DNA of 64,000 bases from a phage: NCBI GenBank assembly GCA_036253495.1, contig GCA_036253495.1_4125.1; one strand, given 5' to 3'. The stretch's first letter is position 1, and the number at the start of each line of letters is the position of its first letter. Positions 4,184-57,851 of this stretch are shown here, piece by piece. The translations under genes and the position numbers were made by a program. The notes under the pieces were generated by a model that did no database searches, was not told the DNA's origin, and saw only the letters and a program-made list of their open reading frames with translations.

Positions 4184-4242
4184 TTGACAAAGTATCTTAG
4201 TACTGTATAATAGTTTACATCAAGGGGAGAATAGTTCTCCCC
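4184..4242 (+). promoter_or_regulatory. sigma70-like early promoter + 5' stem-loop
   Basis: TTGACA 4184-4189, TATAAT 4206-4211, hairpin GGGGAGAATAGTTCTCCCC 4224-4242. Confidence 0.7.
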
Positions 4243-4677: not shown

Positions 4678-4736
4678 TTGACAAAGTATATCAGTACTGT
4701 ATAATAGTTTACATCAAGGGGAGAATAGTTCTCCCC
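4678..4736 (+). promoter_or_regulatory. sigma70-like early promoter + 5' stem-loop
   Basis: TTGACA 4678-4683, TATAAT 4700-4705, hairpin 4718-4736. Confidence 0.7.
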
Positions 4737-12957: not shown

Positions 12958-13299
12958 ATGAAAACTAATATTCAACTTAAGGTTTATAAATCATTTGCAA
13001 GTACATATATCAAATGCAGTCTATGTAAAGATGTAATGGACTACAAAGGTAAGCCATTCACGATTACTTACGATTCTACAAGAGGTTTTTATATATCTTT
13101 TGCTGATTACAAATATAACATGTACGAACACATTGACATTGAAGATTTAAGTACTTTATCTGAAGAAGAATACTTTCAAGAATCATTAGTATGGGATTTA
13201 GAGTTTCCTATGCCATTGGTACATAAGATGATAGTACTAATAAAAGAAACTAAACAGGAGCCTAATAGTGCTTATGAAGAACACATTATTGAGTACTGA
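12958..13299 (+). CDS. FQxS-family protein
   Basis: track ORF; motif SEEEYFQESLVWD. Confidence 0.7.
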   Translation: MKTNIQLKVYKSFASTYIKCSLCKDVMDYKGKPFTITYDSTRGFYISFADYKYNMYEHIDIEDLSTLSEEEYFQESLVWDLEFPMPLVHKMIVLIKETKQEPNSAYEEHIIEY

Positions 13300-13582: not shown

Positions 13583-13828
13583 ATGTTAAAATTTTTAAAT
13601 TTCCTTATCGTCTTGTGTATTGTTCTTGGGATTGCACCGTTTGTATTAGCGTATCTGGATTCAGATGAAATGCACAAGATGAATTGCACAAAGACAGGAC
13701 AGAGTAGAAAAGAGACGGTTATGATGCCCGTAACGGTTATTGTGAATAACATGCCGATTACAAACATGGTCCCTACCCTAACGACAACGTACCAGTACTC
13801 TTGTGATGACGGAGAGAGGTGGAGATAA
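13583..13828 (+). CDS. hypothetical small membrane protein
   Basis: ATG 13583 within track ORF 13541; N-terminal TM helix FLIVLCIVLGIAPFVLAYL. Confidence 0.45.
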   Translation: MLKFLNFLIVLCIVLGIAPFVLAYLDSDEMHKMNCTKTGQSRKETVMMPVTVIVNNMPITNMVPTLTTTYQYSCDDGERWR

Positions 13829-13835
13829 TGCGATA

Positions 13836-14162
13836 ATGCGTAAGATCAATTGTATAAAAAGAGCGAATACATGTTTCATTGCGTTGACCAATGTACCGGG
13901 TGGGTCTGGTGTTAAGATATTTGAGTACAATAAAGTTGATAATTGTTTCTATTGGGTAGAAGGTATCAAATCATATGAAAATACGATAGCAGTACCGAAT
14001 CTAGTTGATATCTCTGAAGAAGAAGAGTTTCAGTACATGTTAGTACACGATGATTCTTTTGGGTTGACATACAAAGAGATGAAGGAAGTACAAAGGCAGA
14101 TGATATCATGTATGAATATTTCTAAGCATTTCCTTCAAAATATTCATCCAATTTACGTATAA
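13836..14162 (+). CDS. FQxS-family protein
   Basis: SD GGAGAGAGGTGGAGA + ATG 13836; motif SEEEEFQYMLVHD. Confidence 0.65.
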   Translation: MRKINCIKRANTCFIALTNVPGGSGVKIFEYNKVDNCFYWVEGIKSYENTIAVPNLVDISEEEEFQYMLVHDDSFGLTYKEMKEVQRQMISCMNISKHFLQNIHPIYV

Positions 14163-14171
14163 GAGATTAAT

Positions 14172-14507
14172 ATGAAATTCAACATTCATAGAATTAATTC
14201 CGGTTGTATATTTGCTTATACGCATGAGAATTACAAGAAGTACATGAATCATGAAGTACATTATGTTTTTGAGGACGGTAAAGAATATTTTGCTTATTTG
14301 AGTCCCAGGAGTTTAGGTAAGTACGAGTTGCTTCAGGATCTTTCTCTTATGCAGGAAGATGAATTATTTCAGTACAGTCTAATTCATGACCCTTATATGT
14401 TTGATATAGATATTATGTGCAGTTTACAGAAGAGGATGAAAGAAGTTTGGGATTCGATTAAAAGAGGTGATTGTATAGAATATGATAGTATACAAGAAGA
14501 TGCCTAA
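14172..14507 (+). CDS. FQxS-family protein
   Basis: track ORF; motif QEDELFQYSLIHD. Confidence 0.7.
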   Translation: MKFNIHRINSGCIFAYTHENYKKYMNHEVHYVFEDGKEYFAYLSPRSLGKYELLQDLSLMQEDELFQYSLIHDPYMFDIDIMCSLQKRMKEVWDSIKRGDCIEYDSIQEDA

Positions 14508-15856: not shown

Positions 15857-16372
15857 ATGAATGAAATTGAATTATTAACGCACAAGATTAGTACAATAAT
15901 GCTTATGCTCAAAAATAATCATCCTATACATAAGTACATTGATATAGATGAATTACGCATAGAAGATAGGCATGGTAAATTATCGTTTATGTTTCACAAT
16001 GCAAATAATGCAGGGAATGTTAACGTTTGTATTGCAGCATTTACCCAAGCCAATCCAGTACAAACATCTCCTGTTGTATACGAAAATAAAGAAGGGTATT
16101 TGTGGGTAAACACAAACGATTATTTCTTTTATGATTTGAAACAAGATGATGAAGTAGAAGAACGAATTGATTTAATTGATATTAGTACAGATTGTAGTGC
16201 TGAATTATTTCAGAAATCGTTATTATATAGTCCTCGTCAAATGCATTATCTAAAGTTATTCAGTTCATTGTACGCGAATCCTTTAATTAAGGGTTTTAAA
16301 TTTTATATAAAAGTTCCTGACATTCAAGCAGTTTATGATATTTTGATGCAAGGATATAGTTATGAAGTATAG
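15857..16372 (+). CDS. FQxS-family protein
   Basis: track ORF; motif SAELFQKSLLYS. Confidence 0.7.
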   Translation: MNEIELLTHKISTIMLMLKNNHPIHKYIDIDELRIEDRHGKLSFMFHNANNAGNVNVCIAAFTQANPVQTSPVVYENKEGYLWVNTNDYFFYDLKQDDEVEERIDLIDISTDCSAELFQKSLLYSPRQMHYLKLFSSLYANPLIKGFKFYIKVPDIQAVYDILMQGYSYEV

Positions 16373-16670
16373 AATGCTCTATACAAAAGATATGATTTAT
16401 GTTGAATTAGAAGGCGATGAAGACGGTTGGAATTTGATTTATTCATGTAGTTCAGGTTGGTACATGGCACATTTAAATGATAACGAAGTCACAGATTATT
16501 TTGTAGATTTCAATACATTATCCGACGAAGAATTGTTTCAACAGCAATTAGTGATTGACACAGGTGGATATGATGTGTTATTATTAAAAAAGATACAGAA
16601 AGCTGTTATGAATTTTAATGCCCAGGTATCCGAATGGGAAAGGAAATATTATGACCTCGAAGTACAATAA
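16362..16670 (+). CDS. FQxS-family protein
   Basis: track ORF; motif SDEELFQQQLVID. Confidence 0.7.
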   Translation: MKYRMLYTKDMIYVELEGDEDGWNLIYSCSSGWYMAHLNDNEVTDYFVDFNTLSDEELFQQQLVIDTGGYDVLLLKKIQKAVMNFNAQVSEWERKYYDLEVQ

Positions 16671-18794: not shown

Positions 18795-19331
18795 ATGATC
18801 CAGCACAAACATTTTGAGTACGAGTTCGCTGACAATTTAGTAAAAATCGTACAGGCGTTTGAGGCTGGGGATTTTGACCACATCTATCCTAAGCACAAGG
18901 AAGGATGGCTTGAGCCTAAGAGCGATATTGAAAAGTATCCATCTATTGTGTATTACAGGAGAGATACGGTAATGCACGCTGTAGGTGAGAAGATGCAGTT
19001 AGAGTATTGTCTTTTGTTCAATGCTATTACATCGGCTACATCAGCATCTGAAGAGTTCGCTCCAGTGAATTGGATTCGTTATTTGGATATGAGCAAGAGA
19101 GAGGAAGAAACCTTTTTTGCTTTAACAAAGCACGTTGATATTGCAACCTTGAATCCTAACATCCTGAGTCCTGAAGAATATTTTCAGGAGTCCTTAGTAC
19201 AAGATCCTTATGTTTTACAGGTGCAGCAAGTATATAATGTATTACGTGCTAATGTGAAAACGAATTTCTTTTTAGCTTTAACGTGGTACGATAGGTTAGT
19301 AAAAGATCTCAAAGAGATTAAGGGGGAGTAA
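18795..19331 (+). CDS. FQxS-family protein
   Basis: track ORF; SD GGGAGTGA; motif PEEYFQESLVQD. Confidence 0.7.
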   Translation: MIQHKHFEYEFADNLVKIVQAFEAGDFDHIYPKHKEGWLEPKSDIEKYPSIVYYRRDTVMHAVGEKMQLEYCLLFNAITSATSASEEFAPVNWIRYLDMSKREEETFFALTKHVDIATLNPNILSPEEYFQESLVQDPYVLQVQQVYNVLRANVKTNFFLALTWYDRLVKDLKEIKGE

Positions 19332-19897
19332 TGCTGGACCTTCAGGACATAGAAAGTACATGCAAAGCGATAGAAGATGATTTAGAATACATCAAGGGGT
19401 TGTATTTAATTGTAGATAGGATTTACAAAAATCCGAATGCGTTTCAGGAAACGTACCAGCATGATAAATTTCGTCACGAACCAATCATTACGCTTATGTC
19501 GGATTTATCGATTTACGAAAGAAAATCCAACAAATCACATAGTGTATTATTTGTGAGTACAGATAGATTTTACAGTACAACATCAATTTGTTCAGATGTA
19601 TCATGTGCATGGTTCAGTTCAAATGAATATATAACAGTTAAAAATAATGGCGAAAATGAGAAATTAAAAGTAAGTGAGCTTATTGATTTGATGCCATATA
19701 GTCCTGATGTTGTGTTTCAGTACAGTACATTGCACGATTATAATTCAATACGATATCGTTATTTTGTTAAGCATTATTATGATACCTTCGGGGAGTTGAC
19801 GGAGAAGTTAACGTTGAGATTTGACCGTGATATCGATCTCGTTGCAATGCTTCAGTACATACAGTACGTGTTTGATAAGGACGCGGAAAAGGGGTAA
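19331..19897 (+). CDS. FQxS-family protein
   Basis: track ORF; motif PDVVFQYSTLHD. Confidence 0.7.
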   Translation: MLDLQDIESTCKAIEDDLEYIKGLYLIVDRIYKNPNAFQETYQHDKFRHEPIITLMSDLSIYERKSNKSHSVLFVSTDRFYSTTSICSDVSCAWFSSNEYITVKNNGENEKLKVSELIDLMPYSPDVVFQYSTLHDYNSIRYRYFVKHYYDTFGELTEKLTLRFDRDIDLVAMLQYIQYVFDKDAEKG

Positions 19898-20097
19898 TTT
19901 TAAAATGATAAATATAGGCTTGTTTTTGGGGGTCAAAAAAATTTTCGCTGAAAAACATGTTAAGGTATATGTTTAATATAAAATTTTATATTGTGTTTTT
20001 CAGAGTACAGTTCATGTTTCCTTAAACAAAAAATACCCCGCCGCCGAACGTGCTCCTTATATTGTAGTTTACCTTATTAATTATAGTAGAGGTTATT

Positions 20098-20454
20098 ATG
20101 AGCAATGATTTTGCTATTCACAGTTTTTTCTACAAAAAGGTTGAGTTCTATTGTAATCTCGTTAAGGGTGATACCAATCATTCGTTGGACCAATATATTA
20201 AGTACACCTCAAATGGATTTTCTTTTATTGATTACGGTCGAGTGGGTGGTGGTGTTAATGAACCTCTACTGGACTATACAGAAATGGATGAGGCTACACT
20301 ATTTCAGGAATCATTAGTGTTCGATAAGAAATATATTTGTACACTAGATGAAGTTATTGGTATTCAGAATATCATGAAAGAACACTCTGCGAAGTGCATG
20401 ATAGAATTAACTCAAGATAAGCACAAGACTGTTCAGTACCATTTCAATCTTTAG
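20098..20454 (+). CDS. FQxS-family protein
   Basis: track ORF; SD AGAGGT; motif EATLFQESLVFD. Confidence 0.7.
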   Translation: MSNDFAIHSFFYKKVEFYCNLVKGDTNHSLDQYIKYTSNGFSFIDYGRVGGGVNEPLLDYTEMDEATLFQESLVFDKKYICTLDEVIGIQNIMKEHSAKCMIELTQDKHKTVQYHFNL

Positions 20455-20465
20455 GGGTCTTAACT

Positions 20466-20810
20466 ATGACATACAATGAATACCGTGAAATAGATCTTCT
20501 CCAGAATACATTATATGAAATTGAAGATTTAATGCACGGATGGACAAGTCTTTCTTTCTTTAATGAAATGTTCGAAGAAATAAAAGTAGTACTACAGAAA
20601 AAACATAATGGTACTAAAATTAAAATAAAGACTTTCACTGGAGAAGTCTGGTGCGGAGAAATTGTGAAATACATTATAACTCGCAATAACGCATCATTCT
20701 GTTTGAATACTGGTCATTACAGAAATCATTTCAACAATAGCAGTACTCAAATTATTTCCGAGGAAGAATACAATGAGCACTGTAATAAACTTCTTAAGAG
20801 TAGATTCTAA
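20466..20810 (+). CDS. hypothetical protein
   Basis: track ORF 114 aa; no family motif. Confidence 0.55.
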   Translation: MTYNEYREIDLLQNTLYEIEDLMHGWTSLSFFNEMFEEIKVVLQKKHNGTKIKIKTFTGEVWCGEIVKYIITRNNASFCLNTGHYRNHFNNSSTQIISEEEYNEHCNKLLKSRF

Positions 20811-21136
20811 TGAATACTAAAATATATGTTTCTTCAAGTACAATGGGAAGTGGTTTTACTTATACGTGCTTTTTTACTACATTGAATAAAACACCTATAT
20901 TGATTATTCGTGATTTCAATGAATGTAATATAGAGTACGTATCCAAAACAGATAAGCTTCCTAATTACATCGAATGCGAATACATGGAGAACTATGAAAG
21001 TTTTATATTTCAGGAATCATTAGTATGGGATAAAGAAATCGATTTCTTTATGTACCTTGCATTACAAAAGTACTACAGAGATAACAAGGACCAAATAGTT
21101 CGTTCTTGCATTTATTCTATTAATCTGGAGTACTGA
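20810..21136 (+). CDS. FQxS-family protein
   Basis: track ORF; motif ESFIFQESLVWD. Confidence 0.7.
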   Translation: MNTKIYVSSSTMGSGFTYTCFFTTLNKTPILIIRDFNECNIEYVSKTDKLPNYIECEYMENYESFIFQESLVWDKEIDFFMYLALQKYYRDNKDQIVRSCIYSINLEY

Positions 21137-21306
21137 TGCTTAAAAAAGAACAAATGGAATCATTAATGAATGCAGTTATTCGTCGTTTTGTTAAAGACAT
21201 TAGTCATAAAAACTGTATTACAAATGACAGGTACGGTATAGAATTGTATATAGCTAATATTCACATGGCGTACAGAGAATATATTAAGACACGTCACAGG
21301 GGTTGA
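21136..21306 (+). CDS. hypothetical small protein (56 aa)
   Basis: ATG 21136..TGA 21306 read by eye; fills gap between coupled genes. Confidence 0.35.
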   Translation: MLKKEQMESLMNAVIRRFVKDISHKNCITNDRYGIELYIANIHMAYREYIKTRHRG

Positions 21307-21307
21307 A

Positions 21308-21790
21308 ATGAGTTTAGAAAGTGCATTGAAAGAAGCAAAGAAGATTCATGAGTACATGAATATGGCAAAAGAAGGTTCAGTTTACGGTATTTTCAAAGAC
21401 ACAAGTACTCAATATTATGTCTCTGATAACCTCATTGATAATGACTTCCCAGATACAGAAACGTGCGTACTAGATACCGACCCTAATGATTATGAATGTT
21501 TCATTGATATGCATAATGAGTACATGGTCTATGTTAATGATGGAGATATTACCATCTACAGTACTGTCCACGATACCGATGACATTATAATTCCGTGTGC
21601 AGTACTGGAAGGTCCGTGGGATAGTGAAGAGTATTACTTCCAACAAAGTACTGTATACAATGAAGAAGAACTTGATTGTATTGTAATTATGTGGTACTTT
21701 AAAAGTATTGGTTCTGAGAACTTCTATTTCGATTACAGATACGTAAAGAAAACTGTAGATAACGGTATTAATAAACTTCACAGGGGTTGA
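21308..21790 (+). CDS. FQxS-family protein (MSLESALKEAKK subgroup)
   Basis: track ORF; motif SEEYYFQQSTVYN; close paralog of 21792 and 22235. Confidence 0.75.
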   Translation: MSLESALKEAKKIHEYMNMAKEGSVYGIFKDTSTQYYVSDNLIDNDFPDTETCVLDTDPNDYECFIDMHNEYMVYVNDGDITIYSTVHDTDDIIIPCAVLEGPWDSEEYYFQQSTVYNEEELDCIVIMWYFKSIGSENFYFDYRYVKKTVDNGINKLHRG

Positions 21791-21791
21791 A

Positions 21792-22235
21792 ATGAGTTTA
21801 GAAAGAGCACTAGAACTAGCCAACAAAATACATCACTTCCACGATAACATAAAAAGTGGGTTCTATGGTGATAAAGTAAGTGCATTTGGTAATGAGTATT
21901 ATCTATCAGGTATAAAGACATACTCTGCTGATATTTTACTTATGGGTCATGATAAAGACAATACTATACAGTACTCTTCATGTAGTCAATATACTAGTTT
22001 TATGGTATATATTCCAGGTACTAAGATTACTTTTGACACAACAAATACACCTGTTGACTTCGGGGTACTTGATGGCCCGTGGGGTACTGAAGAGTATTAC
22101 TTCCAACAGAGTCTCATTTTTAACCAAGAAATGCTTGATTCCTTGGTTGTGTTGTGGTACTTTAAGGAATTGAATTTTGAACCATTCTTTCTTGACTGGG
22201 GAGCATGTGAATATTTAAGTACAGGGGATTTGTAA
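21792..22235 (+). CDS. FQxS-family protein (MSLESALKEAKK subgroup)
   Basis: track ORF; motif TEEYYFQQSLIFN. Confidence 0.75.
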   Translation: MSLERALELANKIHHFHDNIKSGFYGDKVSAFGNEYYLSGIKTYSADILLMGHDKDNTIQYSSCSQYTSFMVYIPGTKITFDTTNTPVDFGVLDGPWGTEEYYFQQSLIFNQEMLDSLVVLWYFKELNFEPFFLDWGACEYLSTGDL

Positions 22236-22690
22236 TGTCGTTACAAAGTGCATTGAAAGAAGCAAAGAAGATTCATGAGTACATGATTAAGGTCAAAGGT
22301 GGAGAAATTCCAGGTATCTTCAAAATGTCAGAGACAGAATATTGCACGAAGAATATTGAGGATTTTGATGGTTCTGATACATTAGTACTGCAATGTGATG
22401 ATTATGATCATGATAATTGTGGTTATAACCCTTTGTACTACTTTATCAATTACTACCCAGGGTCAGATATAACCGTATACAACCCTGATTATTATGGTAA
22501 AGATTTGACAATTCCGTTTTCAGTACTGGATGGTCCGTGGGATAGTGAAGAGTATTACTTTCAGCAAAGTACTGTATATACTGAACATGAACTCGATACT
22601 CTGGTCATTATGTGGTACTTTAAAAGTATAGATTCAACATGTTTCTATATGGATTATGAATACATAGAGACACAGAAATATAAGAGGTAA
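22235..22690 (+). CDS. FQxS-family protein (MSLESALKEAKK subgroup)
   Basis: track ORF; motif SEEYYFQQSTVYT. Confidence 0.75.
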   Translation: MSLQSALKEAKKIHEYMIKVKGGEIPGIFKMSETEYCTKNIEDFDGSDTLVLQCDDYDHDNCGYNPLYYFINYYPGSDITVYNPDYYGKDLTIPFSVLDGPWDSEEYYFQQSTVYTEHELDTLVIMWYFKSIDSTCFYMDYEYIETQKYKR

Positions 22691-22695
22691 TTGTA

Positions 22696-23142
22696 ATGTT
22701 TTTTTATTATTATGAAGTAAATGATAAGTTGGTTCAGGATATTGTACAAATAATCAAGTACTTCAATGATAATCCTAACGTATTGGGTAGTGAGCTTGAA
22801 TACGAGAAAGGTGGGTGTGTATATTTTACTTTCTGTGGTGGGTGCTCGGAAGAGCAATCATTTTTCAATTCTTATTCAAATTACATCTCCTATAATGCAC
22901 TTGCAGACGAGTTGATTGTGGTACGTGACAGTAGTGATGACCGTACAGTGTATACCAGAGAGACAATACAAAGTGTAGGTAATGAAGAAGGATACTTTCA
23001 ATTGAGTACAGTACTTAATCATGAAGAACTACATGTATTACGTTTGTTTTATCTTATTAGTACTATGAACTTGAAGCACGATCAGGTATACATTGATTTA
23101 GATTACTTTGAGTACTTACGTAAGATTAGTTCTAAAAAATAA
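22696..23142 (+). CDS. FQxS-family protein
   Basis: track ORF; motif EEGYFQLSTVLN. Confidence 0.7.
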   Translation: MFFYYYEVNDKLVQDIVQIIKYFNDNPNVLGSELEYEKGGCVYFTFCGGCSEEQSFFNSYSNYISYNALADELIVVRDSSDDRTVYTRETIQSVGNEEGYFQLSTVLNHEELHVLRLFYLISTMNLKHDQVYIDLDYFEYLRKISSKK

Positions 23143-23152
23143 GTTCATGCTA

Positions 23153-23180
23153 TTGACAAGAGCCTGTACTGTGTTACAAT
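23153..23180 (+). promoter_or_regulatory. sigma70-like promoter
   Basis: TTGACA 23153-23158, 16-nt spacer, TACAAT 23175-23180. Confidence 0.5.
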
Positions 23181-23214
23181 GCACAGTAATATTAATTCAA
23201 AAGGTGCACATTAA

Positions 23215-23748
23215 ATGATTATTGATGCTTACAATGCTGAGGAAATGCAGGAATTATCTCGTAAAATCAACATTATAGTTCCTTTGCTTAAGGATTGCAG
23301 TACTGGTTTGATTCCATCACGAGACATTATTAAAGAAGGATACTACCTACAGGCAGTCTATAAGGGTGGTACATTTCATCGTTGTCGTGTATTACGTGAT
23401 GGCCTTCCTGCACTTACACTCATTGGTATTGGTATTGCCTTATGCGGTACGAACCGTTTGTACTTGAATGAAAAAAATCAAATCATGAATTTGTTTTATA
23501 CAGGAAAAAGTACTGAATTATATTTTGGTATTCAGAACTGGTGGGATACAGTAAAGAGTAGTACTATTGAAATCCCAAAATACAATTACAACGCATTTGA
23601 AGAGCAGATGTTTCAATTGTCATGTACAGATGACATGTACATGATTCTACGTCTATATATGGAGATGCAAATGAACTTCAGAAGTAATTTATACATTGAT
23701 ACTTCAACATTTGAATTCGAAGATGTATTCGTTGATGGTATACTATGA
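23215..23748 (+). CDS. FQxS-family protein
   Basis: track ORF; motif EEQMFQLSCTDD. Confidence 0.7.
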   Translation: MIIDAYNAEEMQELSRKINIIVPLLKDCSTGLIPSRDIIKEGYYLQAVYKGGTFHRCRVLRDGLPALTLIGIGIALCGTNRLYLNEKNQIMNLFYTGKSTELYFGIQNWWDTVKSSTIEIPKYNYNAFEEQMFQLSCTDDMYMILRLYMEMQMNFRSNLYIDTSTFEFEDVFVDGIL

Positions 23749-23972
23749 AGTATATTCCAAAACACCAGTACTACAGGATGTGTTCTGACATTTACACAAA
23801 ATGGAATACATTTCATCCCCTTTTGAAGAAGAGGCGTCCATATCATGATTACAAGTTGAATCATTTTCTTGGAACTAATTATCAAGAGGTTGTGATGAAA
23901 GATTACATTTTTAACCTTCAGAAATTAATTCAGAATAAAGTTCAAGGAAAGGGGGAGTCACCGTGGGTATAA
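23745..23972 (+). CDS. GTNYQ-family small protein
   Basis: track ORF; FLGTNYQ; ATGA coupling. Confidence 0.7.
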   Translation: MKYIPKHQYYRMCSDIYTKWNTFHPLLKKRRPYHDYKLNHFLGTNYQEVVMKDYIFNLQKLIQNKVQGKGESPWV

Positions 23973-24169
23973 GACACAGAGACATGCAAGATATTCTTAA
24001 CCAATACAGTGCTCAAATGTTCACTGCAATCAGGTCTTCCAATCAAAATGACGTGTCGGAATTACAGTTACTGATGTACATAGGGACACAATACCAGGAG
24101 GCTTCAGTTGAGACGTATATTAAGTACCTATTGGGTATTATAAGGATGAAAAATGGACAATACTTTTGA
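23963..24169 (+). CDS. GTNYQ-family small protein
   Basis: track ORF; YIGTQYQ. Confidence 0.7.
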   Translation: MGIRHRDMQDILNQYSAQMFTAIRSSNQNDVSELQLLMYIGTQYQEASVETYIKYLLGIIRMKNGQYF

Positions 24170-24389
24170 ACAAGCACCAGCATCGGATTTTAGTTATGGG
24201 TTTATTATAGATATATTTTCTGGTACTGAAGAATCGGATATACCTCTCTATATCTTTGCTAATATGCGTTATATTTTTCGTATTGCAGAGGACAGTGACA
24301 AATCTGATATGTCTTTTATGATTAAAAAAATTATATACCTATCGTGCTATGAATATATGAATAAAATGAGCGAACACTATGACCTATGA
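24153..24389 (+). CDS. hypothetical protein
   Basis: track ORF 78 aa. Confidence 0.5.
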   Translation: MDNTFEQAPASDFSYGFIIDIFSGTEESDIPLYIFANMRYIFRIAEDSDKSDMSFMIKKIIYLSCYEYMNKMSEHYDL

Positions 24390-24927
24390 TGAGATAATTT
24401 CTTTTGCAAATAAGTTAAGTACACTAACCAAATTGACGGAAGTAGTACTGCAAGATGAGCGTATACTTTCTAGGAGTGAGCTAATTGTTTCACAACACGA
24501 TTACATGACGTATATGTCTTTCAGATCGTCAGGCCGAACAATTATTAAGTTCGGTTCTGTTCCTGAAACAAATGGAAAATTATCTATGTGCACCCATAAC
24601 AATGGGGAATTGTATGGATTAGTGTACAGAAAAGATTCGACAGTACTGAATACTTTTAATGCAGGTGCGAGTGCAGTTGATGTTACATCATTAAGCGATG
24701 TTGACAAACACATAGATTTACCACACCTTGAAATTAATGAAGAAAGTGTTTTTCAGTTAAGTACAGTGTACAATGATATTGAAGTGTTTGGTATTTCTTT
24801 GTGGAATATCCTTCGTTTAAGGGATGATGCTCCTGTATTTGTATATGCAAATTATGAAGACATTGATACTTGTATTGATGAAATGGAGAAATACATTGAT
24901 CAATTTAAACAAAACTTCCACATTTGA
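24379..24927 (+). CDS. FQxS-family protein
   Basis: track ORF; motif NEESVFQLSTVYN. Confidence 0.7.
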   Translation: MTYDEIISFANKLSTLTKLTEVVLQDERILSRSELIVSQHDYMTYMSFRSSGRTIIKFGSVPETNGKLSMCTHNNGELYGLVYRKDSTVLNTFNAGASAVDVTSLSDVDKHIDLPHLEINEESVFQLSTVYNDIEVFGISLWNILRLRDDAPVFVYANYEDIDTCIDEMEKYIDQFKQNFHI

Positions 24928-25474
24928 TATTCACGAGAAAGCTAAGCTACTCATCAGTACTGCTGAATATTATTACGATACAGTACTGAGTCAATCACCT
25001 TCTACATTTCGTGATTTAGTTAAATCATTTAATAAAACACAAAAAGAATGTGAGCTTTCATATAATGGTGTGAACTTTATGTATATTAAACCATATATGT
25101 CAAAGCGTGATTTGATTAAATGCAATGATGATTTCAAGATTGATCGTGATTTAAATCGTTTCTTCTACGATGTAAGAAGCAATCTGTATCAACTTACATT
25201 AAATTCCAGTACTTCTTTCATTATTGGATTGGGTAAGAATTTAGGCACAGGTACTTCATTTTATAATAAAGGTGCAGTACAAGATGTGGATCTCAATCCA
25301 AGTACTGATGTTGCATTCCAACAGGATTTGATTATGAATGTGGATTCAGCATCAGTATACAGTTCTAATGTTCTGTGTAAGGAATTTCAGAATTCCAAAA
25401 TTCTTGAGTTATTGTACATTGCGGATTGCAATATACTGTACAAATTTTGTACTCATCTGAAGGAGATTTTATGA
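24896..25474 (+). CDS. FQxS-family protein (divergent)
   Basis: TTG 24896 after SD GGAGA (track 24824); motif TDVAFQQDLIMN. Confidence 0.55.
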   Translation: MINLNKTSTFDIHEKAKLLISTAEYYYDTVLSQSPSTFRDLVKSFNKTQKECELSYNGVNFMYIKPYMSKRDLIKCNDDFKIDRDLNRFFYDVRSNLYQLTLNSSTSFIIGLGKNLGTGTSFYNKGAVQDVDLNPSTDVAFQQDLIMNVDSASVYSSNVLCKEFQNSKILELLYIADCNILYKFCTHLKEIL

Positions 25475-25839
25475 AAAAAGAAATTAGAATCCAATTCGGT
25501 ATGAGGAAAAAAGAGGTCATTTGTACACTGAATCATGAGGTCGTGGAAAGGTTTGATGCATTACAAAAATTCTCCCATTTTGTTCTTGTACTATATGAAA
25601 ATGGGTCTTTTAAAATCTTCACATATGATGATTCAAAAAATTATCGTAATGATTTTGTAAATCTTACAGTACTGTCAGAAGAGGAATTCTTTCAGGAAAG
25701 TACAGTTTGGGATTTACCAGGAGCACCAATTGAATACGTCCGTGCTACACAGGTAGAGATGATCAAAGCAATGCAGAACTATCCAGAAGATCATATGACT
25801 AAGTTTCCTGAATCTATTCATGTAGAGGTTGAGTACTGA
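25471..25839 (+). CDS. FQxS-family protein
   Basis: SD AAGGAGA + ATG 25471 (ATGA with previous); motif SEEEFFQESTVWD. Confidence 0.7.
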   Translation: MKKEIRIQFGMRKKEVICTLNHEVVERFDALQKFSHFVLVLYENGSFKIFTYDDSKNYRNDFVNLTVLSEEEFFQESTVWDLPGAPIEYVRATQVEMIKAMQNYPEDHMTKFPESIHVEVEY

Positions 25840-26177
25840 TGGATTTAGTAAAAGTTACTATAGCCAAACATCAGTACTATGTAATGATTGAGTTAGGTTA
25901 TAACCACAAGAAAGAACATTTTTATTATCTTACATATGAAAAGAATATGTTCAAGATAATCACTAATAATTTAGCACGAGATGTATATCATATTTTTGAT
26001 TACAGTGATTATAGTGAAGAAGAGTTATTTCAGGAATCATTAGTATGGGAGTACAATAGAATTGTAGATATTGAAAAGTTAATTAAGTATCAACAACTAA
26101 TGAAAGATATAATGAATAACTATCCATGTAAACTACAAAGAGAACTGGAATTTATTGTCCAATACAAAGAGGTTTAA
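25839..26177 (+). CDS. FQxS-family protein
   Basis: track ORF; motif SEEELFQESLVWE. Confidence 0.7.
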   Translation: MDLVKVTIAKHQYYVMIELGYNHKKEHFYYLTYEKNMFKIITNNLARDVYHIFDYSDYSEEELFQESLVWEYNRIVDIEKLIKYQQLMKDIMNNYPCKLQRELEFIVQYKEV

Positions 26178-27279: not shown

Positions 27280-27782
27280 TGCCTGATATTAGTAAACTTA
27301 ATTACGATGAGATTGAACAGTACGCAAAAGATATCTACGAAATCTATGATGAATTCAAGAACAATACTACAGCATTTGGTTCAATGTATTCTCGAAAAAA
27401 GAGTCTTAACAGGGATAGGAAAAGTTGTTTAACATATACACAGAAATCGGGCGAAATGATGGAAATCTTCTGTGAATCATTTGATGATAGTGAATATAGT
27501 GTAGGCATGAATTACCTATCTTACTCAAAAAAAGGTGAAGTTGTAGTAGATTTACGTCTTGAAAATGGTCGTAATAGAAAGAGTAGTATCAATGAAGAAG
27601 ATGTAAAACTAATTTCTGAAGAAGATTACTTTCAGTTAAGTACTACTATGAATATGTTGGTATTGAGTGTCATAACACTCTACGGTTTCCTTCGATATAA
27701 GCATGAAATTGAAACTGACTTCTATTTTGATTTGAATGATTTTGAAGTATGCAAGGGATATCTAAATGGGAAAAGTAGTTGA
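27279..27782 (+). CDS. FQxS-family protein
   Basis: track ORF; motif SEEDYFQLSTTMN. Confidence 0.7.
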   Translation: MPDISKLNYDEIEQYAKDIYEIYDEFKNNTTAFGSMYSRKKSLNRDRKSCLTYTQKSGEMMEIFCESFDDSEYSVGMNYLSYSKKGEVVVDLRLENGRNRKSSINEEDVKLISEEDYFQLSTTMNMLVLSVITLYGFLRYKHEIETDFYFDLNDFEVCKGYLNGKSS

Positions 27783-28104
27783 TATTGAGTACATGCACGA
27801 TGGTGATGAAATTTTCATTGTCCAAAAAGAATGCAAGGCTGGACATTGGGTTATCTTCTCTGTAGAAGAGGATGAATCCATTGTATCTTTTATTTCTACT
27901 AAACACAAAGATACGAATTTAGAACTTCTTTACAATTTAAGTGAAGAAGAACTATTTCAAATGAGCACTGCATTTGAATATGATGTATACGAATTATTAG
28001 ATGTACAGAATATTTTGTTGGAGTCTCTTCAGAAACTAAAACACAAAGATTTATTTCTGGTTAAATCATTTATGATGCACAAATATACACTTGAGGTGGA
28101 TTAA
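27766..28104 (+). CDS. FQxS-family protein
   Basis: track ORF; motif SEEELFQMSTAFE. Confidence 0.7.
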   Translation: MGKVVDIEYMHDGDEIFIVQKECKAGHWVIFSVEEDESIVSFISTKHKDTNLELLYNLSEEELFQMSTAFEYDVYELLDVQNILLESLQKLKHKDLFLVKSFMMHKYTLEVD

Positions 28105-52877: not shown

Positions 52878-53177
52878 ATGGACAAAATACAATTAGTTAG
52901 TAGTACTATAACAATGCTTGCTGATGTTGCCAGATGGAGCAGTGGTGGTTCCGTTAGTACTATGCTCGGTATACTCACGCAATACACCTATACATGCAAT
53001 GGAATGTTATATGGTAAGGAGGTTGAAATTGATGATCCCTATGGAATTCCCATATCATATGACCGAGGTGTAATAAAAAGGGTTACTCTGAGACTAACAT
53101 ATCATCCATATTTTGTAGTAGAACTTCCAGATGGAAAATTAAGAGAATATGTTGCTAAAAGGTTAAAACTAAAATGA
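52878..53177 (+). CDS. hypothetical protein
   Basis: track ORF 99 aa. Confidence 0.6.
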   Translation: MDKIQLVSSTITMLADVARWSSGGSVSTMLGILTQYTYTCNGMLYGKEVEIDDPYGIPISYDRGVIKRVTLRLTYHPYFVVELPDGKLREYVAKRLKLK

Positions 53178-53752
53178 ATATTGTAGAATTAAGTACTAAG
53201 CTGATTACTATGCGTAACGAGTGGTACAATTGGTATTATAACGGTACTGACATGGATTTTTCAAAATATCCATTTATGGAATCAGGATGTGATTCAAGAT
53301 ACCGCTGGTTGAGTAAAGATGATTCTGGTTTACATATTCGAGTTGATGATAGTGGTCAGGGAATTATAAAAGATTTACTTCAAGTTGAAGAACTCGTCCA
53401 TGATGAGTGGTGTGATAATGATCCATACCTAGGAAATATAATTTATGTAACTGAAGATGATTGTATATTCGTCATTCAGCGTCATGGTGATTCTATGTTT
53501 TATATAGCAGACAGCAGTACACCTGAAGGTGCAGCATCAGATGGTCTTATTCCTAAGATTAATATATTAGATTTTGGCTTACCTGAGCACTTCCAGATGA
53601 GTACTCTATTCGATATTCCACCGTTTGAGTTCTTTGACGAATTTAAATTGTACTACAGTGATCTTCAGAAATTGAGTACAGAGAGTCGTATTGAAATAAC
53701 TGTCAGGTACATGGACGGGGCAAAATTAACCGACACGGGGATAGAATTTTGA
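53174..53752 (+). CDS. FQxS-family protein (outlier copy)
   Basis: track ORF; motif PEHFQMSTLFD. Confidence 0.65.
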   Translation: MNIVELSTKLITMRNEWYNWYYNGTDMDFSKYPFMESGCDSRYRWLSKDDSGLHIRVDDSGQGIIKDLLQVEELVHDEWCDNDPYLGNIIYVTEDDCIFVIQRHGDSMFYIADSSTPEGAASDGLIPKINILDFGLPEHFQMSTLFDIPPFEFFDEFKLYYSDLQKLSTESRIEITVRYMDGAKLTDTGIEF

Positions 53753-54439: not shown

Positions 54440-54703
54440 ATGAATATCCAAGATAGATTGCAATTGTTGCACACACTTGAAGAAGCTGCTTTTGAACTTG
54501 TTAATAAAATTGCACAAGAACTCCCAAAAGGAACCAACATTCGTGTTCGTGAAATGGATTATTTAACGGGAGAAATTGAAGAAAAAGTTCTAACAGTGAT
54601 CAAAGTAACATACTATGAATCAGAGTTATCAATTCAATGTAAGTCAGATAATGGTTACGTTTCCTACTATGGCACAGATGTAGATATAGAGGTAATTAGA
54701 TGA
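54440..54703 (+). CDS. hypothetical small protein
   Basis: ATG 54440 (track 54395). Confidence 0.55.
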   Translation: MNIQDRLQLLHTLEEAAFELVNKIAQELPKGTNIRVREMDYLTGEIEEKVLTVIKVTYYESELSIQCKSDNGYVSYYGTDVDIEVIR

Positions 54704-55845
54704 GTAATTTACGAGAAATATACAATGATTTAATGGAACTATGTGAATCTAATGATGCATTTTTCTATATAGATCACACAAGCCCTGGTGGTGGTTTATA
54801 CCGTGTATTCACCTATCGTCTGGCATCTTATACCGATTTCACAAATAAAAATGCACTAGAAACTCGTGGTTCTATGTGGGAAATTGATTCCAACGGAATT
54901 ATGATTCGTTGTGCAGCACGTACAATGAAAAAGTTCTTCAATGCATATGAAAACCCGTACACAATGTTCAGTACTGATACTACCTGTGATGATATTGCGG
55001 TTGTAATGCCTAAGCTAGATGGATCTATCATCAGCACATTCCGTGATAATGATGGTGAAATCCGTTGCAAATCACACACTTCGTTATCTTCTGACCATGC
55101 TATTAACAGTACTCGACTTTTGAACGAGAACCAAAATCTCTATCAATACATTGATGAAGCAGACCGTTTGGGCTATACTGTGAATCTGGAATACACAAGC
55201 CCAGAGTATCGAATTGTGTTACCATATCAGGTGGAACAGTTATTTGTTCTTAACGTTCGTCATCGTATTAGTGGTGAGTTGTTATGCGGTAAAGCACTAC
55301 GTGATAAGTTTCCATGCCTTTCACAGTACAGTACTAATATGACAGGTAATGACATTCATCATACATTCCCGATTATGCCTACATTTAAAGAGTCAATCGA
55401 TAAAGTACGTTCTATGATTGACATTGAAGGTTTTGTGTGTATAATGAAAGATGGTACAATGTGCAAAATCAAAACTGACTGGTATTGCTCTTTGCATTTA
55501 ACAAAAGATTCCATTCTTATTGATTCCCATTTATATGAAGCTGTACTGACTGGTGCAAGTGATGACTTAAAACAATTGTTCAGTACTGATACATATGCTA
55601 TGGATAAGATATTAAGAATGGAACAATTGGTATTTTCGTGCTATAATGCTTTACAAGATGAGGTAGAAAGCTTCGTCCATGCATACAAGCACTTAGAGCG
55701 AAAGGAATTCGCACAAAAGGTTCAGCAAGATTTACCGAATGTATTGAACCGACAAGGCTTGGCCTTTGCGTTGTACAATGGCAAAAGTGTCGATTATAAA
55801 GAGACTTTACTAAAGTACTACAAAGATGTACTAAAGGATTTTTAG
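54700..55845 (+). CDS. rnlA: RNA ligase 1 (T4 RnlA-like)
   Basis: 381 aa; collinear with T4 RnlA as I recall it: YNDLMELC N-terminus, ligase lysine motif PKLDGS, MKDG..KIK..DWY, GASDDLK. Confidence 0.85.
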   Translation: MSNLREIYNDLMELCESNDAFFYIDHTSPGGGLYRVFTYRLASYTDFTNKNALETRGSMWEIDSNGIMIRCAARTMKKFFNAYENPYTMFSTDTTCDDIAVVMPKLDGSIISTFRDNDGEIRCKSHTSLSSDHAINSTRLLNENQNLYQYIDEADRLGYTVNLEYTSPEYRIVLPYQVEQLFVLNVRHRISGELLCGKALRDKFPCLSQYSTNMTGNDIHHTFPIMPTFKESIDKVRSMIDIEGFVCIMKDGTMCKIKTDWYCSLHLTKDSILIDSHLYEAVLTGASDDLKQLFSTDTYAMDKILRMEQLVFSCYNALQDEVESFVHAYKHLERKEFAQKVQQDLPNVLNRQGLAFALYNGKSVDYKETLLKYYKDVLKDF

Positions 55846-56918: not shown

Positions 56919-57851
56919 ATGCCAACTATTACACTAACAGTTGGATTGCCAGGATGTGGTAAAACCACGTGGGCAGTGCAAGAAATTAAAAAAGCAAAGT
57001 CCAAGACTATCAACATCAACCGTGATGATATTCGAGAGTCTATGGCTGGGTCACATGATGCTTATAAATTCACTGATGCGAACGAGAAGTACGTAACTAA
57101 TCAACAGTTCAGTGCAGCAAACGCCGCAGCAGCGAATGGATGGAACATTATTGTGTCCGATACGAACCTGAAACAAGGTTTTCGTGATGAATGGAAACGT
57201 TGGGCTAAAGATAATGGCTACGACTACAAAGAAAAGAACTTCTACGAAGATTTTGTACCGAATGAAGACCGTGGTGCAGATGTTCATGAATTCTTTAAGA
57301 TTAAGGAATTCGTGAAGCTCTGTAAGAAACGCAACCTTCTTCGTGAGCGTTCAGTACAAGATGAAATCATTGACACTATGGCAGATACGTACTATTATAG
57401 TAAGGCGATGCACATTGGTTACTATGGTAATGCACGTGAAGCTGCTATCATTGTTGATATCGACGGTACTCTTGCTCATAAGTGGGGACGTAACCCGTTT
57501 GATGAAAGTACTGTCCTTCAGGATACACCAGATGAAGAAGTAATTCTGTCTGTCATTGCTGAGGCTGTTTTCCATAAGCGTAAGGTAATCGTCATGAGTG
57601 GGCGTACTGAAGGGTGTCGTGCTGATACTGAACAGTGGCTTAAGAATTGGGGCATTCCCTACGATGTATTGTTAATGCGAGCTATCGATGATAAACGTCC
57701 TGATGATGTTGTCAAATTCGAGTTGTATATGAATAACGTTGTTAATCATTACGATGTTAAGAAAGTATTTGATGACAGGGCCGCCGTTGTATTCATGTGG
57801 CGTAAGCTACTAGGCTTGAAAGTATTTCAGGTGGAACCTGGACTATTTTGA
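56919..57851 (+). CDS. pnk: polynucleotide 5'-kinase / 3'-phosphatase (T4 Pnk/PseT-like)
   Basis: 310 aa; kinase P-loop GLPGCGKTT, phosphatase DIDGTL, C-terminal RKDDV..K-like block; collinear with T4 Pnk as I recall it. Confidence 0.85.
   Translation: MPTITLTVGLPGCGKTTWAVQEIKKAKSKTININRDDIRESMAGSHDAYKFTDANEKYVTNQQFSAANAAAANGWNIIVSDTNLKQGFRDEWKRWAKDNGYDYKEKNFYEDFVPNEDRGADVHEFFKIKEFVKLCKKRNLLRERSVQDEIIDTMADTYYYSKAMHIGYYGNAREAAIIVDIDGTLAHKWGRNPFDESTVLQDTPDEEVILSVIAEAVFHKRKVIVMSGRTEGCRADTEQWLKNWGIPYDVLLMRAIDDKRPDDVVKFELYMNNVVNHYDVKKVFDDRAAVVFMWRKLLGLKVFQVEPGLF

Follow-up and report, generated by a model that had tools for sequence, protein, structure and literature searches.

In T4-like phages, clusters of small non-essential early genes lie behind sigma-70 early promoters, and the early genes of T4 are mostly unrelated to each other. 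For the RaK2-like jumbo phages, general remarks on paralogs are all that was found in the literature, and a description of the protein family treated here, the FQxS family, was not found. A further point of comparison is provided by the genomic accordions of poxvirus multigene families (Elde et al. 2012, cited in PMC13359090).

The window analysed here is a single stretch of phage DNA of 64,000 nt. A megablast search with positions 20000-24000 matched 34 phage records, all of them ~350 kb Asteriusvirus jumbo phages, either coliphages or phages of Salmonella (121Q, PBECO4, phAPEC6 and others), and Escherichia phage A4 is the closest relative of the window, with 97% identity. Judged by its sequence, the window comes from an Asteriusvirus jumbo coliphage. 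The three genes at the centre of this analysis are termed A, B and C, and the exact A, B and C proteins are also found together on a 352-kb contig of an "E. coli O157" assembly. Many "Escherichia coli" assemblies hold complete ~350-kb Asteriusvirus contigs (352052, 357761 and 358987 bp are instances), which suggests a carrier-state or contaminating jumbo phage in the sequenced cultures. Rfam and tRNA scans of the window were both empty. The genes and motifs referred to below are as follows; alpha, beta, gamma, delta and epsilon are labels for paralog types coined in this analysis.

12958-40796, + strand: wider FQxS array, with 40 of the 41 ORFs found by the family HMM, all on the + strand and tightly packed or overlapping
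21136-21306, + strand: 56-aa upstream ORF, not of the family; its end, CAC AGG GGT TGA (H R G stop), is the left half of junction copy 1
21308-21790, + strand: gene A, 160 aa, alpha-type, pI 4.2; starts MSLESALKEAKKIHEYM; ortholog of A4_354 (99%) and 121Q gp370 (79-82%)
21626-21649, + strand: motif EEYYFQQS of gene A (E107-S114); F111 and Q112 are family-invariant
21792-22235, + strand: gene B, 147 aa, gamma-type, pI 4.4; starts MSLERALELANKIHHFH; ortholog of A4_356 (97%) and 121Q gp372 (87-88%)
22089-22112, + strand: motif EEYYFQQS of gene B, as read from the sequence
22235-22690, + strand: gene C, 151 aa, delta-like type, pI 4.3; starts MSLQSALKEAKKIHEYM; 99% identical to A4_357 and 55-60% to 121Q gp373
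22547-22570, + strand: motif EEYYFQQS of gene C, with TTT CAG codons for F-Q as against TTC CAA in A
22696-23142, + strand: gene D, 148 aa, the next family member, which ends the gene run; like A-C over the motif block only
23153-23180, + strand: sigma-70-like promoter TTGACA-16-TACAAT with TG extension, in the gap after D; overlaps a hairpin at 23167-23188
53174-53752, + strand: family member outside the array (192 aa), one gene upstream of that for RNA ligase

The first-pass annotation had described A, B and C as close paralogs within a larger family. An ORF check recovered the three reading frames with the coordinates and N-termini given there. In BLASTP comparisons A and C are 52.7% identical over 148 aa (E 2e-46), A and B 35.7% (E 6e-26) and B and C 34.6% (E 2e-25); the range of amino-acid identity among the paralogs is 32-53%. 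The annotation had also named a similarity confined to the short motif as the result on which the paralogy would fall. When the motif block is removed, the N-terminal parts still align (A-C E 1e-18, A-B 1e-5, B-C 5e-6), and therefore the similarity of A, B and C is not motif-confined. It is for gene D that the match to A-C is limited to the motif block. A block said to be shared by all three genes is exact in C only; A reads LEGPWDSEEYYFQQSTVY and B reads LDGPWGTEEYYFQQSLIF at this place. All three proteins match the profile of phrog_9317 over its full length, from position 1 to ~155 of 160, with E values of 7e-61 (A), 2e-55 (B) and 3e-47 (C). They are thus real paralogs inside the larger FQxS family, full-length and anciently diverged members of the phrog_9317 sub-family.

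Iterated HMM searches of all window ORFs gave 41 members of the FQxS family, every one on the + strand, encoding acidic proteins of 100-215 aa. F-Q is present in 41/41 and S at +3 in 35/41, within a consensus [ST]-E-E-x-[YL]-F-Q-x-S-[LT]-[VIL]-[YH]-[DN]. A, B and C, which read EEYYFQQS, have all the marks of the family, namely the F-Q, the x-S, the acidic S/T-E-E run before it and a length within 100-215 aa. All four F-Q codon combinations are in use, and the retention of F-Q across all four codon pairs shows that selection acts on the protein. A short sub-type of 100-122 aa, which lacks the N-terminal helix, is represented at 12958-13299, 13806-14162, 14172-14507, 16362-16670, 20098-20454, 20810-21136, 25471-25839, 25839-26177 and 27766-28104. 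The ORF at 24824-25474 overlaps the previous family member (24379-24927) by ~100 nt; the A4 annotation begins the orthologous gene later, so that the true start is probably an internal ATG.

Word-indexed homolog searches gave nothing beyond Asteriusvirus, and an exhaustive HMMER search did reach further, finding 175 clusters among 1.84 billion representatives. All of these are 39-215 aa long and none is a fusion; FQx[STC] is retained in 157/170 database sequences. Distant members detected by tblastn and by Foldseek against BFVD belong to RaK2, K64-1, Muenster, Munch and 7t3 (both Salmonella), Klebsiella fENko-Kae01, GAP32, Serratia BF and Yersinia fHe-Yen9-03. Klebsiella phage RaK2 has at least 31 family members in 30 kb (array ORF363-439; within 244840-285307), and with this number the expansion is placed before the Alcyoneusvirus/Asteriusvirus split. 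The family is restricted to RaK2-like jumbo phages. Scans of 7-49 members against Pfam, NCBIfam and PADLOC gave no threshold-level match, the best being DUF4467 with E 0.0011 in one member, and PHROGs divides the family into at least 25 groups, with function not assigned there. The FQxS family is large and previously undescribed, and it is worth experimental attention. Two labels in related genomes look like annotation errors: A4_348, the ortholog of window ORF 18795-19331, is annotated "DNA ligase" and is actually an FQxS member without a ligase domain, and phAPEC6 gp447c is annotated "amidohydrolase 3" though it is only 125 aa long.

The AF2 model of the gene A protein (pLDDT 84.8, pTM 0.79) has a helix at 3-22, seven strands between 28 and 95, a helix at 107-113 (EEYYFQQ), a long helix at 119-133 and a strand at 139-142, and ends in short C-terminal helices. 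In this model EEYYFQQS stands at the end of the short helix and is followed by a loop that leads into helix 119-133. A short member, 25839-26177 (112 aa, AF2 pLDDT 77.1), is modelled without the N-terminal helix and with the same sheet, F-Q helix, long helix and final strand as A. Thus both models have a common core of sheet, short helix ending in F-Q, loop, long helix and terminal strand. The members are small and acidic and are taken to be cytoplasmic, with a predicted alpha+beta fold. Foldseek against BFVD recovers proteins of 121Q, RaK2, GAP32, Serratia BF and Yersinia fHe-Yen9-03. Foldseek searches of PDB with the two AF2 models gave no significant match, the best E values being 3.4 and 0.49, and PDB sequence profiles gave chance matches to acetylcholine receptor, or none. 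Frataxin, p32 and YbjN were set aside as fold relatives (TM 0.16-0.32); for the p32/gC1qBP/MAM33-like fold the matches are at chance level only (1p32_B, E 6.5, TM 0.16; 3jv1, E 2.1, TM 0.32).

The expectation of the first-pass annotation that the trio would reveal which residues are free to vary is borne out. The beta-sheet region 23-96 and the C-terminal tail are variable, and the start of the N-terminal helix and residues 99-131 are fixed. Averaged over positions, 45% of the six paralog types agree on the most frequent residue in the sheet (23-96), 42% in the tail and 77-83% in 107-133. Invariant in the sub-family are M1, S2, L3, A6, L7, A10, I81, V99, L100, W104, E107, E108, Y110, F111, Q112, L122, V126, W129, Y130, F131, F139 and D142. 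The proteins may therefore be pictured as a conserved scaffold, made of the N-terminal helix, the helix-loop-helix with the invariant F-Q and near-invariant S, and the final strand, that would carry a highly variable antiparallel beta-sheet.

One tentative explanation of such a pattern is that the F-Q helix docks all members on one partner, which might belong to the host (RNA polymerase or a protease, for example) or be a phage protein, and that the sheet selects cargo or targets. The presence of F and Q in every window member, and of FQx[STC] in most database proteins despite an overall identity below 20%, is consistent with a common docking surface. So is the profile-profile comparison (hhalign), which pairs the two types, long and short, in the 23-column SEE-x-FQ-x-S block and nowhere else; that block is the sole part common to both. 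However, the motif lies in the best-predicted region of the model (pLDDT 92-94), and it may thus be simple core packing. An equally speculative elaboration is a modular effector repertoire on a fold that lacks a solved relative, in which the F-Q helix would dock the ~40 members on one partner, each sheet would bind a different host protein of defence or housekeeping, and the gene junctions would be cassette borders for shuffling of the repertoire between related phages.

The surroundings of the genes suggest an early role. The window has 24 near-consensus sigma-70 promoters on the + strand versus 2 on the - strand (2.2 expected), one of them directly after gene D, and with this bias the whole window looks like an early region. 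Several of the strong promoter matches fall inside ORFs. The promoter consensus suggests early expression of the family, and the promoter at 23153-23180 would mark the start of the next transcription unit. For the A-C operon, no convincing promoter was seen in the 19897-20098 gap. A near-identical promoter cassette of ~45 nt, aagtaTTGACAaagtatcttagtactgTATAATagtttacatcaag, occurs four times, at 1034-1075, 1302-1343, 4184-4225 and 4678-4719. Just downstream of the array the window encodes a T4 Rnl1-type RNA ligase (RNA_lig_T4_1 and T4_Rnl1_C, 54700-55845) and a T4 Pnk-type kinase/phosphatase (AAA_33 and HAD_PNKP, 56919-57851). Together, Rnl1 and Pnk form the well-known tRNA-repair pair used in counter-defence. 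In RaK2 the order is the same, with the family at ORF363-439, RNA ligase gp464 and Pnk gp470.

The median pI of the family is 4.8 as compared with 5.8 for the other ORFs, and A, B and C are at pI 4.2-4.4. Despite this acidity, membership of the ArdA/Ocr class of anti-restriction DNA mimics was rejected, since ArdA matched one member only at E 0.073 and there was no PDB fold match. No homology link to a function was obtained from Pfam, NCBIfam, PADLOC, the PDB sequence search or Foldseek against PDB.

Small size and acidity are also properties of T4 internal proteins and other injected proteins, and the family might thus be packaged in the virion or injected, like internal head proteins. However, the phAPEC6 orthologs gp438c-442c are not among 62 virion proteins of that phage, whose proteome has no gp4xx protein, and the 54 virion proteins of RaK2 are encoded in other clusters of the genome; low-copy injected proteins could escape such proteomes. 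The genes are also placed among sigma-70-type promoters, far from structural genes. Virion packaging is accordingly considered improbable. The promoters, the virion proteomes and the presence/absence variation described below together suggest an early, non-virion accessory role, and the proteins probably serve in host takeover or counter-defence.

In 121Q, CRJP21, UE-S1 and phAPEC6 the locus consists of five paralog types in the fixed order alpha, beta, gamma, delta, epsilon. A groups with alpha (79-83%) and B with gamma (78-97%), and C and A4_357 represent a divergent delta-like form (55-60%). Each paralog type thus has genus-wide orthologs, which places the duplications before the diversification of Asteriusvirus. 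The 55-60% identity of C and A4_357 to the delta type of 121Q, phAPEC6 and others compares with 79-97% for the neighbouring orthologs, and gene D stands in place of the epsilon type. The divergence of C and the replacement of epsilon by D indicate that the right half of the cluster was exchanged in the A4 lineage. The boundaries between the genes involve three further features.

21295-21321, + strand: junction copy 1, an exact match; also present in phage A4 before A4_354
21779-21805, + strand: junction copy 2, consisting of the end of A (H R G stop), the Shine-Dalgarno-like run, and ATG with the first 14 nt of B
21792-21809, + strand: crossover segment ATGAGTTTAGAAAGAGCA, identical to beta-type gene starts (A4_355, 121Q gp371), with gamma-type sequence downstream

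The nucleotide junction that had been reported before the first two genes is confirmed as a 27-mer, CACAGGGGTTGAAATGAGTTTAGAAAG, that is present exactly twice, at 21295 and at 21779. No further copies were found at up to 3 mismatches, and 0 are expected in shuffles. It reads CAC AGG GGT TGA A ATG AGT TTA GAA AG, that is, the last three codons and the stop of the upstream gene, with an AGGGG Shine-Dalgarno-like run, followed one base on by an ATG and four codons. Stop and start thus form TGAAATG, and the first 14 nt of the downstream gene encode MSLE. The boundary between B and C, ACAGGGGATTTGTAATG, is built alike: the start of C overlaps the stop of B (TAATG) and AGGGGA lies upstream. This anatomy is that of a translational-coupling region, and we infer that the genes are translationally coupled at their junctions.

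Related genomes indicate where the junction belongs. In 121Q-type genomes AACAGG(T/G)GTTGAAATGAGTTTAGAAAGAGCA precedes the beta gene. WPEC3 has no alpha gene, and its homolog of the 56-aa ORF (61 aa) sits immediately 5′ of the beta-type gene, with ACACAGGAGTTGATATGAGTTTTGCAAGAGCA between the two. Since the beta gene is preceded by the junction motif in both, the motif is the beta gene's own 5′ region. In A4 and in the window, the 56-aa ORF is followed by a beta-type leader with 14 nt of beta-type coding sequence, and then by alpha-type sequence. Evidently, as read from this arrangement, an alpha unit was joined in after the beta-type start, which would have duplicated the leader. The counterpart of junction copy 2 in A4 and 121Q stands before the beta-type gene, which is absent in the window.

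The absence of this gene can be followed at the nucleotide level. A4 holds four genes here (354-357), and its beta gene A4_355 lies between the orthologs of A and B. The A/B junction of the window tracks the A4 354/355 junction through ATGAGTTTAGAAAGAGCA and then continues with gamma-type sequence. A 401-nt probe taken over this joint matches all 34 phage records in two pieces only, spread over ~860-1190 nt, which shows that every sequenced relative has an extra unit between A and B. The lost segment is 467 nt, exactly one unit, and the crossover is placed between nt 14 and nt 19 of the beta- and gamma-type ORFs, in a homology of 14-18 nt. Thus the N-terminus of gene B, MSLER, is chimeric. A 359-kb contig of an independent assembly, GCA_011911785.2, agrees with 99.3% identity over 5.5 kb, and both the order of the genes and the joint are the same in it. 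Gamma-type proteins that start with MSLER occur solely in assemblies in which A, B and C are neighbours by accession or locus-tag number. The deletion of one unit in the window lineage is therefore real. The junction is best read not as a sign of recent duplication but as a sequence moved by recombination, which before B is now a deletion scar. Unit number is three here, four in A4 and five in 121Q, WPEC3 lacks the alpha type, and the joints are at unit boundaries.

The 5′ end of gene A is a mosaic as well. Its nt 1-14 are beta-type, and nt 11-52 are identical to gene C in a 42-nt exact run. The local dS of A versus C at the 5′ end is 0.18. Gene conversion between A and C at the 5′ end is graded as suggestive only, because the same-codon test gave p = 0.09.

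A family in which one unit was dispensable in the window lineage, and in which dN/dS between orthologs is fairly high (0.5-0.65), might consist of functionless, decaying duplicates that inflate the genome. However, every genome examined has the ORFs intact, synonymous change has left the motif in place, 30-40 copies have been retained since before the RaK2/Asteriusvirus split, and the translational coupling signals are kept. Decay is thus very unlikely.

Slightly further still from the evidence is a recent tandem duplication in the window lineage with the repeated junction as the duplication boundary. The genes are adjacent, on the same strand and of similar length, the 27-mer is exact at two boundaries, and A and C have their 42-nt identical run, all of which would fit such an origin. 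However, by the Nei-Gojobori method on the codon alignment, paralog dS is ~1.0 for A-C, ~1.8 for A-B and saturated for B-C, as against ortholog values of 0.14 for A versus 121Q gp370 and 0.12 for B versus 121Q gp372. In addition, 121Q, phAPEC6, CRJP21 and UE-S1 have separate orthologs of each gene, and the gene type to which the second junction copy belongs is deleted in the window. The splits within the genus are several-fold younger than the duplications, and the first-pass annotation was mistaken in taking the cluster to be young. The weakest proposal, that the EExYFQxS block is a TEV/3C-like protease cleavage site at which the proteins are processed, draws on members that read EEGYFQGS and so fit the TEV consensus ExxYxQ(G/S), and is scarcely credible: the position that follows Q is taken by another Q in A-C and across the family often by Y, L, E or N, the conserved S coming one place later, so that the P1′ residue is wrong, the segment is helical (pLDDT >90) rather than extended, and no TEV/3C-like protease was seen in ORF scans of the window.

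What is preferred is a reading in which A, B and C are ancient paralogs of a clade-specific family whose units are gained, lost and exchanged by recombination, and whose proteins act early as takeover or counter-defence binders; as a whole it is given a probability of roughly 0.55. The genes would lie in long operons and be translationally coupled, the last codons of one gene carrying the ribosome-binding site of the next, with stop and start codons of successive genes overlapping or nearly touching. The conserved borders, together with the conserved first codons, would constitute short patches of homology, and recombination at such patches could insert, delete or exchange whole gene units. 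The two 27-mers that flank A would represent one such recombination joint, and in the window lineage a crossover within the opening 14-18 nt of the beta and gamma genes removed one unit and gave B its beta-type start. The proteins would be made early from host sigma-70 promoters and remain in the cell, possibly as a varied set of binders for host takeover or counter-defence in which the variable sheet recognises different targets.

Taken alone, A, B and C are nothing unusual for a tandem paralog array. They do provide a clean, dated example of how such an array changes, with old duplications and a turnover of units at 14-18 nt of homology at the gene borders. In RaK2-like jumbo phages ~30 kb of sequence and ~40 genes are taken up by a single undescribed family in which F-Q is invariant. 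If the proteins are indeed takeover or anti-defence binders, the family would be a rich source of new inhibitors, and natural presence/absence variants, such as the missing beta-type unit, would be ready-made genetic tests.

Among known systems, phrog_9317 (PHROGs v4) is matched over its length by A, B and C; it differs in being a bare sequence cluster, with function not assigned there and without an attached structure. The literature on RaK2 paralogs concerns the same phage clade and the same phenomenon, but it leaves the family, the F-Q motif, the fold and the boundaries undefined. With the early clusters of T4-like phages the locus has in common genes packed densely on one strand, stop codons that overlap starts, a large number of strong sigma-70-type promoters and a nearby Rnl1/Pnk pair. 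However, the ~40 FQxS genes are paralogous, in contrast to the T4 early genes. The poxvirus accordions, as they are represented in the paper that cites them, consist of near-identical and recent copies, whereas the FQxS copies are 32-53% identical, with dS from ~1 to saturated, and an anti-defence role is putative for the FQxS proteins. What the two share, within the same account of the poxvirus case, is a large virus encoding small proteins of one diversified family, whose copy number shifts by recombination between units, here between close relatives.
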